DNA of 64,000 nt from Squalus acanthias (lineage: Eukaryota). The notes below the pieces were generated by a model. The model ran no database searches, was not told the DNA's origin, and saw only the letters and a program-made list of their open reading frames with translations. The stretch is from assembly GCA_030390025.1 (NCBI GenBank), contig JASTWF010000036.1:2418001-2482000 (forward strand), read 5' to 3'. Below are positions 31,620-49,228 of the stretch, piece after piece. The translations under genes and the position numbers were made by a program. Position 1 is the first letter of the stretch, and each line of letters opens with the position of its first letter.

Positions 31620-32100
31620 ATAGGTTACAACTATCAGAAAAAGGTTACAACTATCAGAAAAGGTTGAACAGAGTGGGACTCTTTTTCTCTAGAAAAGAGA
31701 AGGCTGAGGGGTGACCTGGTAGAGGTATTTAAAATTATGAAAGGGTTTGATAGGGTAGACGTAGGGAAGATGTTTCCACTTGTGGGGGATTCCAAAACTA
31801 GGGGTCATAAATATAAGATAGTCACTAATAAATCCAATGGAGAATTCAGGAGAAACTTCATTATCCAGAGAGTGGTGAGAATGTGGAACTCGCTACCACA
31901 GGGAGTGGTTGAGGCGAATAGCATAGATGCATTTAAGGGGAATGTAGATAAGTACATGAACGAGAAAGGATTTGAAGGGTATGTTGATGAGGTGAGATGA
32001 AATAGGGGTGGGAGGAGGCTCGTGTGGAACAGAAACACCGGCATGGACCAGTTGGGCCGATGGCCTGTTTCTGTGCTGCACATTCTATGTAACTCTGTGT
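31620..32100 (+). mobile_element. CR1 LINE 3' fragment with a short tandem duplication at its 5' junction
   Basis: KGFDRVDVGKMFPLVG...WNSLP peptide. AGGTTACAACTATCAGAAAA occurs twice at 31622-31661. Confidence 0.9.
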
Positions 32101-32165
32101 ATATAATTAGAGACAATACTGCATTACTGTTATTAAAAACAGAAAAAATAAACCATGAGCCTTAC

Positions 32166-32404
32166 CAGGTTTCCCACAGCCAAAACATCTTCAAAGTTCT
32201 TTGTCATTGGGTAGTGCTCCATTGCCATGAAGAGGGTGTTGAGTGCAATACAAATGGTAATGGCTAGGTCCACAAATGGATCAAACACAAACAGGTGCAA
32301 ATACTCTTTAAGCTTCAACCAGAAAGGGCAGCATTCCCAGATCAGAAACGTATTAGCAAACTTATACCAGCAGGGCGGGCACTTCCTTTGAGACTCTTCA
32401 AGTT
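32166..32404 (-). CDS. SCN8A: Nav1.6 exon, end of DI-DII loop and DII S1 ([25 protein letters not shown]...VLAVGNL)
   Basis: 239 nt, phase 1/0. Acceptor TTTCAG|AA, donor CTG|GTAAGG. Confidence 0.96.
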
Positions 32405-32809
32405 CTGAAATCACAAATCAGAATTTTCAATAAAATAGTCACCATTGTTAACTACACAAAGTTGTTATTTTACCATGGAGGGCATCACAGGTGAGCTCAA
32501 TGTCCGGTCCTCATCTGATGTCCACACATGTGCATTTCCAGCAGGAATTGCTGGAACCGCCATCAGATGTAGGCTCTGTTTCCATTCTTTAACCCCAGGC
32601 CACTGTAGCACCAAAGCTGCCACACTGGCTAGGTCAGCTAACTCAGCGCGAACCAAGGAATTGAGCCTGGACTGTAATAGCTTAAGTACTCACTATGTAA
32701 ACGTCTGAGTACTTAGGGGGAGTTATACTGATTTAACGTGAACATATGCTGTTGACAAATGTGAGAAGTCGCACAACACCAGGTTATAGTCCAACAGTTT
32801 TATTTGAAA

Positions 32810-32846
32810 TCACAAGCTTTCGGAGCGCTGCTCCTTCGTCAGGTGA
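32810..32846 (-). ncRNA. Minimal type I hammerhead ribozyme motif in a short Penelope-like terminal repeat (~32760-32855)
   Basis: Minus strand reads UCAC-CUGACGA-A-GGAGC-AGC-GCUCC-GAAA-GCUU-GUGA: intact core, 5-bp helix II, 4-bp helix I, palindromic AAGCUU helix III. Confidence 0.75.
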
Positions 32847-33044
32847 AGTGAAGAAATTTCGAGATAGGGTGTGCTGGAGGAAAGATGTATTTGTATAACC
32901 GTATTTATTTCTTCTGCTCCAATTTTCACCCCAATTCTCTCTTGCAGGTATTGATTCATGCTGAGATACAGTTTCCCTGCCACTCAGTGATATCTAACTC
33001 ATTCTTTATGTGCGAGTCTAGATGTGAGGGTCGGCAGGATATTT

Positions 33045-34235
33045 ACATACATAGGATTACATTGGGTATACAGTACAGAAACAGGCCATTCGGCCCAACC
33101 AGTCCATGCCGGCGTTTATGCTCTACTCGAGCCTCCTCCCGTCTTTCCTCATCTAAATCTATCAGCGTAACCCTCTATTCCTTCTCCCTCATATGCTTGT
33201 CCAGCCTCCCCTTAAATGCATCTATACTATTCGCTTCAACCACTCCCTATGGTAGCGAGTTCCACATTCTCACCACTCTCTGGGTAAAGAAGTTTCTTCT
33301 GAATTCCCGATTGGATTTCTTGGTGACTGTCTTATATTGATGGCCTCTAGTTATGCTCTTCCCCACAAGGAGAAACATTCTCTCTGTATCCACTCTATCA
33401 AAACCTTTCATAATTTTAAAGCCCTCTATTAGGTCACCCCTCAGCCTTATTTTTTCAAGAGAAAAGAGACCCAGCCTGTTCATCCTTTCCTGATATGTAT
33501 ACCCTCGCATTTCTGGTATCATCCTTGTAAATCTTCTCTGCACCCTCTCCAGTGCCTCTATATCCTTTTTATAATATGGCGACCAGAACTGCACGCAGTA
33601 CTCCAAGTGTGGTCTAACCAAGATTCGATACATATTTAGCATAACTTCCCTACTTTTCAATTCTATCCCTCTAGAAATAAACCCTGGTGCTTGGTTTGCA
33701 TTTTTAATGGCCTTGCTAACCTGTGGTGCAACGTTTACTGATTTGTATATTTGTACTCTGAGATCCCTTTGTTCCTCTACCCCACCTAGACTCGCACCCT
33801 CCAAGTGATATTCTTCCTACCAAAATGTAATACCTCACATTTATCTGTGTTGAACTTCATTTGCCAATTATATGCCCATTCTGCAAGTTTATTAATGTCC
33901 TCCTGTAATTTGTTGCAGTCCTCCTCAGTACTGACTATCCCCCCCAATTTGGTATCATCCACAAATTTAGAAATTGTGTTTTTGATTCCTCAGTCTAAAT
34001 CGTTAATGTAAATTGTGAACAGCAGTGGTCCCAGCACTGATCCTTGTGGAACACCACTACCCACCTTCTGCCACTGTGAATAGCTACCCTTTACTCCTAC
34101 TCTCTGCTTTCTGTCTTGAAGCCAGCCAGCTATCCATTCTGCTACTTGTCCCCTGACTCCGCATTCTCTGACCTTGTTCATCAGTCTATTATGGGTTACC
34201 TTATCGAAGGCCTTTTGAAAATCCAGATAAATTTG
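33045..34235 (-). mobile_element. CR1 LINE, 5'-truncated
   Basis: [32 protein letters not shown] and [15 protein letters not shown] motifs plus 3' UTR. Confidence 0.93.
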
Positions 34236-35329
34236 ACCATGGAGGTGCGGCATCATAGCAACAATTTATTCTGTCCTTGCGTTGTGTCAATACATGCACA
34301 CTTTCCAGCAGGGGTTATTGAAGTGTGAGCAGGATGGGAACCCTGGCTGGTTTTTCCCCTCCTTAGGCCAGGGGCACCGAGGTCAGGTAACTCAGTACAG
34401 TCTGGGACATTCCTCGTCCACGTGGCATGGTTCCACTCTGGACAGCACACTGATTGCGGCCACCAATGAGTGAAATTTGTACCTGTGTTTGATGAACTCT
34501 ACAGTGCATTCCTGGAGCAGTGCATTTGTCTGCACACTCGTAGAATAAAACTGGAGTTCATGGTGGCAAATGGTAGACTAAACTACATAGCTGTAATTTG
34601 TTCAAGAATGCTGCACAACTAATACTGATCATTATAAAGAAAGTGTTGAAAATAATAAAGCAAAACTAAAAATAAATACTATCCCTGAAGGACAGCTTTA
34701 TTCTGGTGAAAGGTTTTTTTTTTTAAATGACCATGCTTAATTCAATGGAAATTGCAGATTTAATTCAGGATCCCAAAGAGGCCCGGAGTCAGTCAAGATC
34801 TGCTGAATGCACTGGAACAAATTGAGGGGGAGTCGGCAAGAATTTACACCGTGTTGCAGTCCTGCCCTCTTATTCTAAAGCCATTTTATTTTCTCCACTA
34901 ACTAACAAATTCCTGCACTGCTCACCATTATTTAGCCAAAAAGACTGGGATGGGATCTATTCTGCAGCCTTTGCCAGTGCTGCTCTTAAGCCAGCTGCTA
35001 CAGTGTATGGAATCTCATTTTCCCTACTACCCTGTCGAAAAGCAGCTCTGCCCCCAATGGCACAGCCAAGATTAGGAGCTTGCTATGTGGAGAACCAAGG
35101 ACACTAACCTGCATTATGATACTACATAGCACAATCTATGGAGGAACCGACAGCTTGCGCTACTACACTGCCCGAGTGCGACATTTCCTTATCGATTAAA
35201 ACACCTAAGCATATCGGGGCTCATGGTGTTCTCTATTTTATGCATCTACTTTTTAGCAAAATTAGGCAACAGAAGAAAATAAAGCCCTCGGCCTTCCTTT
35301 CAACTCTTGATTTCAGAGCATGGCATTAT

Positions 35330-35935
35330 ATCATAGAAACATAAACACATAGCAAAATAGGAGCATTCGGCCCTTCGAACCTGCTCTGCCATTCAATATG
35401 ATCATGGCAGATCCTTTATCTCAATACCATATTCCCGCTCTCTCCCCATACCCCTTGATGCCGTTTGTGTCTAGAAATCTATCTATCTCCTTCTTAAATA
35501 TATTCAGTGACTTGGCCTCCACAGCCTTCTGTGGTAGAGAATTCCACAGGTTCACCACCCTGAGTGAAGAAATTACTCCTCATCTCAGTCCTAAATGTCC
35601 TACCCCGTATCCTGAGACTGTGACCCCTCGTTCTAGACCCACCAGCCAGGGGAAACATCCTCCTTGCACCCAGTCTATCTAGCCCTGTCAGAATTTTATA
35701 CGTTTCAATGAGATCCCCTCTCATTCTTCTAAACTCTAGTGAATACAGGCCTAGTCGACCTAATCTCTCCTCATATGACAGTCCTGCCATCCCAGGAATC
35801 AGTCTGGTGAACCTTTGCTGCACTCCCTCTATGGCAAGTATATCCTTTCTTAGGTAAGGAGACCAAAACTGCACACAGTACTTCAGGTGTGGTCTCACCA
35901 AGGCCCTGTACAACTGTAGTAAGACATCCTTGCTC
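35330..35935 (-). mobile_element. CR1 LINE 3' fragment
   Basis: [24 protein letters not shown] peptide plus 3' UTR. Confidence 0.92.
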
Positions 35936-37417
35936 CTCCCACTACTATTTACTATGCCACTGGGTGCCACTCTCCATAAGACGTCAGTTGGGAACACAGA
36001 GACCTATCTTCTGCACATGCATGAAGAATAACAAAGTAATTACGGGTCTGTTTCAGCTCAAGCATTTTCATCTGCCATCTTTGGCGCACAGATGTCATGA
36101 CGTCAGTTGTCCTAAAGTGGCCTGCACTTTTAGCTGGCCTGAAACAGAGCTGAACAAATCTAGCGGCAGTTCACGAGACCCACGAGAAAGTGCATCTCTC
36201 CTGCCACCAGAACAAGGTGAGTCAAACCATTTCTATTTTTACGTGCAGCCGGTGGTGGGAGAATGCCGAATTTGCTGTTGACTGCAATTTGAGACTATAA
36301 AGGAAACTTTTATCTTCTAATATTTGGCGCAAAGTCTAGAAGAGTAACTATAACAAAAAGACTTAAGCAACATGCTAGCTGATGAACAGCAGTTTTGCGT
36401 CGCTTAGCAGTTTGATATTACTGTATTCATCCAGAAACAAATAGGTCACTATAATAATTGGGCAACCTGCAGCTAAGCTCTCTAGACTTAGGCAAGTGTT
36501 CCAATGGAGAGAGTGTGCACTCCATGTTGGGCAAACAGAAACTCTACAGATAGGTGCTTTAATTGGAGACTTGTCAACATGGTGATGGGTTTCTAAGCAC
36601 ATCACATAAAAAGACATTGGCCCCAAAATTCCTTGGGTCACAATCCCAGCTGAAGAAGTCTCTGCCTCTGGCCTCAGACACTAAGGCATTTGACTTACAA
36701 GGTATTGAGGAAACTCCCAGAAATGGTGGAGATCCAGTGCAACCAGGTCTCCACCATTTCACTGGGGCTTTTGCCGGGGTCCTAGGGATTCCACCAGAGT
36801 TACAGTGGGAAACCAGCAGAACCCCTGCAGAATTTCAGCACCATTGTTTTTAACATGGCCCATCTGTACAATTCTGTTTCTGAAGCCAAAATGACTCCAA
36901 TGAATGGATTTCTGTTGTTTTTGCCTCGAACAGTAAAAGCCAATTAACACATTTCACCTACTGGGCTGAAGTGGTTGCATGCAACCACTTCGCTGAATGC
37001 CAACATTAATTTATTTTGCTTGGTTTGGGGTGGTGGGGAATAACATCTGATCCCAATGCTGTCCTCACCCAATGTCCACAGGTATACTTTCCAGCAGGAG
37101 TTATTGGACAGCAATCAGGAGTGGGAACACTGGGGAATGTTTTCCCCTCCATAGAGCAGAGATACTTAGCCTAATTGTAGCATCCCTATGATCCCAGCTG
37201 AGATCTGCCAACCCAGCGGAGACAAGAGATTGAACCTGGGACCATCCAGGTTCAGTGCATTTACACGAGGCCATTGGAGGAGGCTGGTAAAACAGATTTA
37301 TTTAAAGCTTGAAATATTGTATTAAAGACATCATTACAACTAAACAGCACACTCATTTCAAATGCCCCTGAAGCTCACCTGTATAGAATTGAAAAGGAGA
37401 ACATGCATTGTACGTAC

Positions 37418-37550
37418 CTTCTAGAGTGTTTGTCAAAACACTTAAAACACTGTTTGCTCTGTCCTTCCTCCCGAAAGATGCATTCAACTGGTCCATGGAC
37501 ACCAGGAGGGATCCAGAATGTTTCTTTTTATTTTCTAGTTCAGTGGTAGG
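37418..37550 (-). CDS. SCN8A: Nav1.6 DI-DII loop exon ([44 protein letters not shown])
   Basis: 133 nt, phase 0/1. Acceptor TTTACAG|CCT, donor AAG|[21 protein letters not shown] is SCN8A-specific. Not in the ORF track; read manually. Confidence 0.92.
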
Positions 37551-37931: not shown

Positions 37932-40580
37932 ACATAGATACATAGATACATAGAAGATAGGAGCAGGAGTAGGCCATCCGGCCCTTCGAGCCTGCTCCGC
38001 CATTTAATGAGATCATGGCTGATCCTCCAATTCAGTATCCCGTCCCCGCCTTCTCTCCGTAACCCTTAACCCCTTTTGCCTGTAGAAATATATCTAATTC
38101 CCTCTTAAATATATTTAATGAGCTGGTGTACACTGCCCTCTGTGGCAATGAGTTCCACAGGTTCACCACCCTCTGAGTGAAGAAATTCCCCCTCATTTCT
38201 GTCCTAAATGGTTTAGCCCTTATCCTTAAATTATGTCCTCTAGTTCTGTTCTCACCCGCCAAGGGAAACATCCCTTCTGCATCTAGTCTGTCTAGACCTG
38301 TCAGAATTTTATACACTTCTATGAGGTCCCCTCTCAATCTTCTAAACTCCAGTGTGTACATCCCTAAACTACATAGTCTCTCCTCATAGGTCAATCCCGC
38401 CATTCCTGGTATCAGCCTGGTGAATCGCCGCTGCACCCCCTCCATGGCAAGAACATCTTTCCTCAGATGAGGCGACCAAAACTGTACACAGTACTCGAGG
38501 TGTGGTCTCACCAGTGCCCTGTACAGCTGCAGCAAGGTATCCCTGTTCCTGTATTCCAACCCTTTTGCTATGAAGGCCAGCATACCGTTTGCCTTCTTGA
38601 TTGCCTGTTGCACCTGCATGCTTGCCTTCAGTGACTGGTGTACAAGAACACCCAGGTCTCTCTGTACTTCCCCCTCTCCCAATTTATTGCCATTTAAATA
38701 ATAATTTGCCCTCCCGTTCCTGCACCCAAGGTGGATAACTTCGCACTTGTCCACATTATAGTGCATCTGCCATTTATCCGCCCAATCACCCAGTCTGTCC
38801 AAATCGCTCTGGAGCTTCCTGGTCTCCTCCTCTGAGCCCACCCCCCCTCCTAGTTTAGTGTCGTCTGCAAATTTGGAAATGCTGCATCCGACTCCCTGAT
38901 CCAGGTCATTAATGTAAATTGTGAACAGCTGGGGACCCAGGACAGATCCCTGTGGTACCCCACTTGTTACTGCCTGCCATTCAGAAAATGAGCCGTTTAT
39001 TCCAACTCTCTGTTTTCTATCTGACAGCCAGTTCTCTATCCACGTCAATACTTTCCCCTTTATCCCATGAGCTTCAATTTTCCCTGCTAATCTTTTATGT
39101 GGGACCTTATCGAAGGCCTTTTGGAAGTCCAGGTACACCACATCTACTGGCTCGCCCCCATCTATTTTACCAGTTACTCCCTCAAAAAAATCCAATAGAT
39201 TAGTCAAGCACGATTTACCCTTTGTAAATCCATGTTGACTCTGTCCTATCCTGTCCCCATTTGCTAAGTGCTCCGCTATTTCATCCTTAATGATGGACTC
39301 CAGCATTTTGCCCACAACTGATGTAAGGCTTACAGGTCTGTAATTACCTGCTTTTTCCCTACTCCCCTTTTTGAATAGTGGGGTAACGTTAGCTACCCTC
39401 CAATCCATGGGCACTGTTCCCGAGTCCAATGAATTCTGAAAAATCATACTTAGTGCATCCGCTATCTCTAGGGCCACCTCCTTCAGCACCCTAGGATGCA
39501 TGTTATCAGGCCCTGGGGATTTGTCCGCCTTCAATCCCTTTAGCTTCCTTAACACCATATCCTTAGAGATATTGACTTGCGTCAGTTCCTCCTTTGCAAA
39601 TGTCCCTATTTTTCCCGATATCCCAGGGAGGTTTTTTGTGTCTTCCTTCGTAAAGACTGACCCAAAGTATGCATTTAGTTGGTCTGCCATTTCTTTATTT
39701 CCCGTTATATATTCCCCCGTATCTGACTGCAATGGGCCAACTTTGGTTTTCACCAGTCTTTTCCTCTTGATATACTTATAAAAGCTTTTGGAGTTAGTTT
39801 TTATATTTTCCGCCAGCTTGCTTTCGTAAGCTATTTTGCCCCTCTTGATTAAGCCCTTTGTCCTCCTTTGCTCTATCTTAAACTGTTCCCAATCTTCCGC
39901 TCTGGCGCTTTTTTTGGCTATTTTATACGCCCTATCTTTGGATTTTATGCTGTCTCTAATTTCCCCTGTTATCCACGGTTGAGTCACCTTTTTAGATTTC
40001 CTTTTATGCCAGATTGGTATAAACAATTTTTGCAATTTTGTCATTCTATCTTTAAATGCTTGCCATTGTTTATCTACCTCCAGTCCTCCCAGGAACGTTG
40101 TCCAATCAGACCTACTCAGTTCCCGTCTAATGGCATCATAATTCCCCTTGTTTAAATTCAGGACCTTAGTATCTGAGTCAATTTCTTCGCTCTCCATTTC
40201 GAGTGAGAAATCGATCATGTTATGATCGCTCTGACCCAAGGGTCCCCGTACAACAAGATTACTAATTAGTCCCTTCTCATTGCACAGTACCCAGTCCAAT
40301 ATAGCCTGTTCCCGAGTTGGTTCCTCGACATATTGATCCAGATAACCATCCCTTAAACACTCAAGGAATTCCTCCTCCTCATTATTTTTACTGATTAGGC
40401 TATTCCAATCTATATGTAAGTTAAAGTCACCTATGATGACAGCTGTGCTCTTATTGCACGCTTCTCTAATTTCCCTCGTGATGCCCTCCCCAACCTCTAT
40501 TTTACTATTTGGAGGCCTATATACCACTCCTATTAATGTTTTTCGCCCCTCGCTATTTCTTAGCTCCACCCATATAGATT
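37932..40580 (-). mobile_element. CR1 LINE with uninterrupted 845-codon ORF2 remnant (C-terminal half of APE endonuclease plus complete RT), 5'-truncated
   Basis: ORF 38032-40569 contains [45 protein letters not shown] and FADD. The 3' UTR ends in a (TATGTATC)n tail. Confidence 0.97.
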
Positions 40581-41250: not shown

Positions 41251-42063
41251 ATTAAACTATTCACGAAGAATTGACAACTTAGACTTTCTCTACCAATTCC
41301 ACAATCCCATCAGGGGGTGGCATTCATAGAGAACATTGGTCAGAGATAGGGCTACAACACTATAGCATCAGTTCGCTGCCCTGTACCCACTTCGAGCACG
41401 GGATTGCTGAATTTACTAATACCCATTTAAAAAAAATCTACTCCCCATTCCTGGCCTTCATCCAGCTTCACCTCTAGTCAAATTTGGTAATTCCCAAAGT
41501 TATGGCAGCATAATCAAAACCCAGCAGACACTATGAAAGCATAACAGTACACCTTAACAGTGCCACTATCCTCTAGCATCAGTCTCCAAGGTAGTCCTCA
41601 AGCTCTTCAGCAAAGACTCCTCATAATCTCTTTGTAAGCTTTACCTCGTACACTTCACTCGATCAGCGTCCCTGCCACTGGACTCAATATCCACCTGATC
41701 ACCAATGCATTATAGATGCACTATATATGATCTACAGGATGCACTGCAGCAACAGAAAATAGATCCCAGACTGTCGGAATTTTGATTCTTGACTTGGAGG
41801 CAAAAATTTCTCTTAAATGATCAGACGTTCTCATGTCCTTACTACAAGGAAAGTGTTATATGGCACCGTTCAGTTCCCACAGTTCTCCTTTTGAAACTTT
41901 AATTCATGAGAATAATAGAAGATAAATAAAAGTGTAGCTAGTTGAAAGCAGTCGGAAATTAAAACAGAAAATGCTTGAAATATATAGCATGTCTGTCAGC
42001 ATCTGAACAGAGAAAGGACAGATTAATGGTTCAGGTGCACGTCCTTTGTCAGAACTAGATATA

Positions 42064-48964: not shown

Positions 48965-49228
48965 ATTAGTATTGAAGTAACAACAGAAAACGCTGGAAAA
49001 ACTCAGCAGGCCAGGCAGCATCCGTGGAGAGATTTAATCAAATAGATTTAAGGCTCTTTTTGATTTCCGGCTCTTCCCAGTTCTGATGAAAGGTCATCGA
49101 CCTGAAATGTTAACTCTCTTTCTCTCTCCACGGATGCTGCCTGGCCTGCTGAGTTTTTCCAGCGTTTTCTGTTGTTATTTCGGATTTCCAGCATCCGCAG
49201 TATTTTGCTATCGTATTAGTATTGAAGT
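48965..49228 (+). mobile_element. Short Penelope-like insertion with 14-bp TSD, perfect 55-bp inverted arm and hammerhead motif
   Basis: TSD ATTAGTATTGAAGT at 48965-48978 and 49215-49228. Arms 48978-49032 and 49123-49177 are exact reverse complements. CTGATGA-A-AGGTC-ATC-GACCT-GAAA at 49083-49107. Confidence 0.8.

Follow-up and report, generated by a model that had tools for sequence, protein, structure and literature searches.

Gene organization around the hammerhead

The window, by which we mean the whole 64-kb stretch of Squalus acanthias DNA analysed here, contains part of an SCN8A-like sodium channel gene transcribed from the minus strand. The exon at 32166..32404 encodes the end of the DI-DII linker and DII S1, and is defined by its open translation and by a PDB sequence match in which SCN8A is the best among 37 PDB sequences (143 bits, versus 131 for SCN1A/SCN3A). 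It joins in frame with the upstream minus-strand exon at 37418..37550, which encodes the DI-DII linker, and the two are separated by a phase 1 GT-AG intron of 5,013 nt (32405..37417, minus strand). Sodium-channel exons located with short motifs extend, in window coordinates, from about +126 kb down to -15 kb, a set that lacks those at the very 5' end of the gene. At about 119,361 and 119,555 (L087) there are two near-identical DI S3-S4 exons 194 nt apart, an arrangement as for mutually exclusive exons, which we take to be the exons named 5N and 5A.

The intron contains a minimal type I hammerhead at 32810..32846 (minus strand), in the same orientation as the gene, with its predicted scissile bond 409 nt from the acceptor of the DII-S1 exon, close to the 400 nt given in the initial annotation. 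Read in the gene sense, the motif consists of the 5' strand of a 4-bp helix I (32846-32843), the core C3-A9 (32836..32842, with C3 at 32842 and G5 at 32840), an extra A after A9 (32835), a 5-bp helix II with G10.1-C11.1 and a 3-nt loop (32834-32830 paired with 32826-32822), G12-A14 (32821-32819, with G12 at 32821), a palindromic A15.1-G-C-U16.1 in place of helix III (32818-32815), U17 (32814), and the 3' strand of helix I (32813-32810). The description of this motif as a minimal, dimer-type hammerhead in sense orientation, with a complete core and perfectly paired helices I and II, stands: a position-by-position reading and a descriptor scan recover every core nucleotide, and all nine pairs (4 + 5 bp) are Watson-Crick, helix I being only 4 bp long. 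The predicted cut, after U17 and between 32814 and 32813, follows from the hammerhead consensus and is where it had been placed before. The remnant of helix III is palindromic as had been described, but its proper length is 4 nt and not 6, the longer version having included the core residues A14 and U17. Since these are the only four bases between A14 and U17, helix III cannot form within one molecule.

A minimal-hammerhead descriptor scan of the 64-kb window gives two matches, the motif at 32810..32846 and a member of another family at 49083, as compared with a mean of 0.04 matches in 100 Markov control sequences and, at strict settings, none in any of the 100. By itself, a loose hammerhead pattern does no better than chance (10 observed, 6.3 expected), folding of the whole 96-nt fragment is no better than that of its shuffles (z 0.27) with no signal on either strand, and the Rfam covariance models run over 32000-33600 at E up to 10 report no hammerhead, giving five weak non-hammerhead matches of which none lies on the motif. 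The predicted pairing varies with the flanking context, with probabilities of 0.4-1.0 for helix II and 0.13-1.0 for helix I, and both helices are highly probable in a context of 41 to 58 nt.

An abundant Penelope-like family

The hammerhead lies within a terminal (pLTR) piece of a Penelope-like element (PLE), truncated at the 5' end and placed at 32754..32857 on the minus strand. All 30 fetched sister loci match the window copy over the core and some 80-90 nt downstream, with homology edges at 32754 and at 32854-32857, and the fragment is thus about 100-104 nt long and not the 95 nt first estimated. Across the 3.71-Gb genome we count 18,654 exact matches to the 28-nt core and none to the reversed control; with N7, loop II and H17 relaxed there are 21,139 intact-core copies, or 5.7 per Mb. 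These are pattern-search counts, and they supply the genomic copy number that the initial annotation had called for.

The hammerhead sits within the flanking repeat of a PLE open reading frame in three sisters (L045, L027 and L002), and longer sisters extend upstream into the end of the frame. The full copy L045 has the motif, an ATG 121 nt after C3, an 892-aa ORF, and then the motif again. This single ORF contains a reverse transcriptase (RT) domain (Pfam RVT_1, E 5.6e-9, 36.4 bits against a cut-off of 29.6), and its translation, read by eye, has a C-x4-C-x2-C linker and a GIY-YIG-like motif with two Cys. Pfam never calls a GIY-YIG domain in the L045 ORF or in pieces of it, and a PDB sequence search with the RT piece gives two chance matches only. 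An inverted copy lies within 300 nt upstream in 20 of the 30 sisters and an optional tail of about 35 nt is present in nine, whereas the window copy has neither of these and no TATA-like box. The earlier attribution to a Penelope terminus is borne out by the sister motifs that flank an RT and GIY-YIG ORF at both ends and by the fragment shared among all 30 sisters. To judge from this homology, the window copy is an end fragment, about 100 nt long, of a very abundant Penelope-like retrotransposon and carries its intact minimal hammerhead.

Several comparisons bear on the type of the parent element. The 5' truncation, inverted neighbours and optional tail are all present in the family as expected for EN+ PLEs, the latter two being described for PLEs in PMC8557442. 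With the Neptune/Nematis-type EN+ PLEs (Craig et al. 2021, PMC8557442) it shares these three features together with the single ORF, the order of RT followed by a GIY-YIG-like motif with two Cys, and the C-x4-C-x2-C linker; by eye, L045 also agrees with the C-terminal GIY-YIG with CCHH and the CX2-5CxxC linker given there. The parent element thus appears to fit a Neptune/Nematis-type EN+ PLE, with Neptune and Nematis not separated. The Poseidon element PAc of Anolis (Frangieh et al. 2024, PMC11167929) resembles it in that the hammerhead adjoins the ORF start, most templates are uncleaved, and there are two preferred 3' ends about 35-40 nt apart in an A/C-rich stretch. However, PAc lacks the zinc-finger linker that is present here, and its ORF starts inside the hammerhead, whereas here the hammerhead and both 3' ends precede the ATG, which is at +121 from C3.

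The motif itself is of a known kind. Like the minimal hammerheads in the pLTRs of metazoan PLEs (Cervera and De la Pena 2014, PMC4209133) it is of type I with a 4-bp helix I, has complete C3-A9 and G12-A14 segments with A15.1, U16.1 and H17, carries an extra base between A9 and 10.1 and a G10.1-C11.1 pair, forms helices I and II, and has a palindromic 15.2-16.2 with no stable helix III; in both cases most copies are dispersed, single and derived from truncated PLEs. It differs in the length of helix II, which is 5 bp here and 7-8 bp in Schistosoma mansoni, and in abundance, with more than 21,000 copies of one family here compared to totals of about 4,000 in coelacanth and 9,000 in Xenopus. The window hammerhead is a further instance of a retroelement motif already described. 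The non-LTR retrozymes (bioRxiv 10.64898/2026.07.22.740005) are likewise derived from PLE pLTRs and carry type I hammerheads, and are reported there from one chondrichthyan; identity with them is rejected, as tandem hammerhead units are required and the window holds a single copy, a solo fragment. We found no literature on shark Penelope hammerheads, 'shark' in PMC6155905 being a shape; cartilaginous fish go unmentioned in the parts of PMC4209133 consulted, although its species tables may list them, and nothing was found on a hammerhead at this SCN8A locus.

Variation within the family indicates that the hammerhead structure has been maintained in the source elements. Among 43 motif matches (L001-L032, overlapping loci in which some are counted twice), one helix I pair varies between C-G, U-G and U-A, a compensatory change, and the second family has different helices around the same hammerhead core. 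Many RT frames are 94-96% identical, with open frames of up to 932 aa, which suggests that the family may have been active recently.

Family 5' ends

Family 5' ends pile up at 7 and 6 nt before C3, with 2,793 and 1,799 copies genome-wide, respectively. A hand count of the first 100 listed, with the templated C excluded, gives G as the base preceding the -7 boundary in 64, T in 21 and A in 15, and 20 of the 36 copies with upstream context have a TATA-like box 30 or 33 nt before the -7/-6 boundary. An extra G at the 5' end of a retroelement can be copied from the RNA cap. It is therefore likely that a capped start lies immediately before the hammerhead and that the G derives from the cap, which would put the hammerhead at the extreme 5' end of the RNA; microhomology could also give the G. 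If the start is capped, cutting would detach a capped leader of 36 nt, and of the templates copied as far as their 5' end most would have been uncut. The window copy runs 5-8 nt past this putative start and has no TATA-like box upstream, so that it likely derives from a 3' repeat and lacks a promoter.

A smaller group of copies begins at the predicted cut site. Homology starts there in 219 copies, compared to 87 at +1, 107 at +2 and 137 at -1; scaled for letter filters and a uniform flank, these become about 780 at the cut versus 310 (+1), 380 (+2) and 325 (-1). This is a 2-2.5-fold excess, and the cut-site starts represent about 4% of the intact-core count; any comparison with the -7 and -6 counts is rough, as these use a different anchor. 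Of 30 such copies inspected (L052-L081), 16 adjoin an inverted copy, many via the 4-nt complement of helix I, two are internal changes, and 12 are classed as having unrelated flank. The excess may mean that the family cuts in vivo at times, but it is confounded by microhomology, which may explain part of it.

A probably recent insertion

The window copy is very similar to its dispersed relatives, with 0-4 differences from the 30 sisters over 87 positions and identity to five of them, in a sample chosen for an exact core and hence biased to young copies. Comparison with other species indicates that organisms B, C and F (runs X6, X7 and X12, from two studies) lack it at the orthologous site. Contigs joining both flanks are available in three of four runs, with one contig per run at each empty site (depths 9.6, 3.5 and 6.9), and the fourth run, X5 (organism A, another sample), had no bridging contig. 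Organisms B and C have 87 other letters between 32755 and 32859, and the letters adjoining 32858/32859 in organisms B, C and F are alike among the three and unrelated to the element; when sought in the window, the empty-site letters of these organisms gave one chance match only. The right flank of the spanning contigs has 3 to 10 differences from the window over about 173 positions. Inspection by eye shows no target-site duplication around the window copy. The absence of the element from the spanning contigs of three other species argues that the insertion is young, and the simplest reading is of a recent insertion that would have been accompanied by a loss of about 87 bp of the target.

These observations bear on whether the host retains the ribozyme in order to tune Nav1.6 output, in the manner of CPEB3 or the RECK-type hammerheads. 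There are precedents, shown for CPEB3 and proposed for the RECK-type hammerheads (PMC10919898; PMC6155905), and the window motif is likewise intact, self-cleaving in type, intronic and in sense orientation. However, the amniote ribozymes are conserved and full-sized, whereas the window motif is minimal, restricted to its lineage, and belongs to a high-copy repeat; the conservation at the orthologous position expected of a domesticated intronic ribozyme is not seen in organisms B, C and F, the element being absent from all three of the other species with a spanning contig. It also has neither helix III nor a loop 1, helix I closing a 4-bp open end. Because the copy is identical to five of 30 dispersed sisters, its intactness needs no host selection, and at 5.7 intact copies per Mb one copy in a gene of more than 140 kb is expected by chance. 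An exapted regulator is thus extremely unlikely, and the place of the copy in SCN8A, being what this density would give, matters little as such.

Possible consequences for the SCN8A transcript

There is no second family copy in the 64-kb window, nor any between the last coding exon and +204 kb. About 200 kb of neighbouring sequence contains just three family matches, all of them about 29-32 kb beyond the last coding exon, and no partner for a dimer in cis is therefore found inside the scanned part of the gene, which stops short of its 5'-most exons. The prospects in trans are predicted to be poor as well: in a nearest-neighbour model, which ignores core contacts and is a hint only, the active dimer has an energy of -20.7 kcal/mol, versus -23.2 for two monomers and -30.5 for an inactive helix II dimer, and the helix III formed between two molecules has 4 bp (-2.5 kcal/mol).

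The most likely course of events is that the endonuclease of the element cut the SCN8A intron, that reverse transcription, initiated 80-90 nt downstream of the hammerhead, would have ended after about 100 nt, and that repair would have removed about 87 bp of the target. Within the element's own RNA two hammerheads about 3 kb apart would pair via the 4-nt palindrome, probably with assistance from the PLE protein. As a lone motif in the SCN8A pre-mRNA, the window copy would form helix II, and in many cases helix I, yet no helix III, and so would rarely cut before the intron is spliced. The core would be intact because the copy is young and its source elements kept the core, rather than through host selection. 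With no partner ribozyme to pair with, the window copy is very probably inert, a leftover rather than a gene switch. Against this it should be noted that no inverted partner masks the copy, that helices I and II can form, and that copies begin at the cut site 2-2.5 times as often as at neighbouring positions.

Published minimal hammerheads are in keeping with an inert copy. In PMC4209133, a single S. mansoni motif gives no detectable cleavage and dimers cleave at a low level, so by analogy the window motif is probably near-inactive as a monomer, as had been suspected. The Anolis hammerhead requires the protein of its element in order to cut, is dispensable for insertion in vitro, and shows no RNA-seq ends at the cut site (PMC11167929); a review (PMC6765202) agrees. 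Slow intronic ribozymes had no effect on splicing (Fong 2009, cited in PMC10919898).

Some residual activity of the monomer could be imagined through the single A15.1-U16.1 pair, fast enough to reduce the lifetime of the excised intron or of a few pre-mRNAs, with neutral effect. The high probability of helices I and II in the 41- to 58-nt context favours this, but a 2-nt loop cannot close helix III, and U17 is the weakest base allowed at a hammerhead cleavage site. We consider slow cleavage of this kind very unlikely. A comparable motif is without detected monomer activity (PMC4209133).

A more complex possibility is that expressed PLE RNA, or its ribonucleoprotein, uses the palindrome to pair with the window motif and cleaves a minor fraction of SCN8A pre-mRNAs, as a side effect common to thousands of sense intronic copies. 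The intact core and sense orientation, the roughly 21,000 compatible copies, the many long open RT frames at 94-96% identity that suggest recent activity, and the modest surplus of copies that begin at the cut site are all consistent with this, as are the hammerhead cleavage that a PLE protein enables in vitro (PMC11167929) and the under-representation of tandem-type retrozymes, found less often than expected, in Xenopus introns (bioRxiv 10.64898/2026.07.22.740005). However, helix III would have just 4 bp, the modelled double-hammerhead dimer is less stable than either the monomers or the inactive dimer, and the cut lies only 409 nt from the acceptor. Moreover, activity of the Anolis protein depends on the initial 172 nt of the ORF RNA (PMC11167929), and the window fragment contains no ORF sequence. 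Incidental cleavage in trans is thus quite improbable. Were it true, thousands of host introns would contain a site at which the retroelement can cut. A related and decidedly improbable idea is that the family ribozyme is switched on by the element's RNA and protein together, that a derepressed PLE pairs with lone sense-strand copies and cuts thousands of host pre-mRNAs including that of SCN8A, so that transposon activity would directly reduce the output of host genes, and that the excess of cut-site starts would be the fossil trace of this.

The proposal of retroelement-dependent control of the channel gene is not supported: the motif is one of 21,139 copies, is absent in organisms B, C and F, and has no partner in the scanned gene, and published minimal hammerheads either show no detectable monomer cleavage and little dimer cleavage (PMC4209133) or need the protein of their element (PMC11167929). 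Control of Nav1.6 by this copy is unsupported, and we return to the reading of an inert leftover. What the locus offers is an entry to its family, of which over 20,000 young copies have 5' ends that record where element RNA began and was cut. These could make the in vivo role of PLE hammerheads testable from the genome and one RNA-end experiment.

Other repeats in the window

Among the various other insertions, we note a second PLE-like family at 48974-49215, where a minimal hammerhead found by the descriptor scan (49079..49115, plus strand, antisense to the gene), its palindrome broken by one change, is accompanied by an inverted partial copy. A decayed relative lies at 41952-42056 on the minus strand, and there is a hammerhead-like match at about +70,064. 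A common interspersed repeat is present as two inverted copies at 31683-32109 and 33040-33465 (about 83% complementary over 289 nt), which bracket the DII-S1 exon and the hammerhead and could pair in the pre-mRNA across two introns; this inverted repeat (31683-32060/33090-33465) was considered as part of the element and rejected, being a pair of common interspersed repeats. The next intron upstream contains an 848-codon open frame at 38035-40578 on the minus strand with endonuclease- and RT-like text, probably a young LINE.
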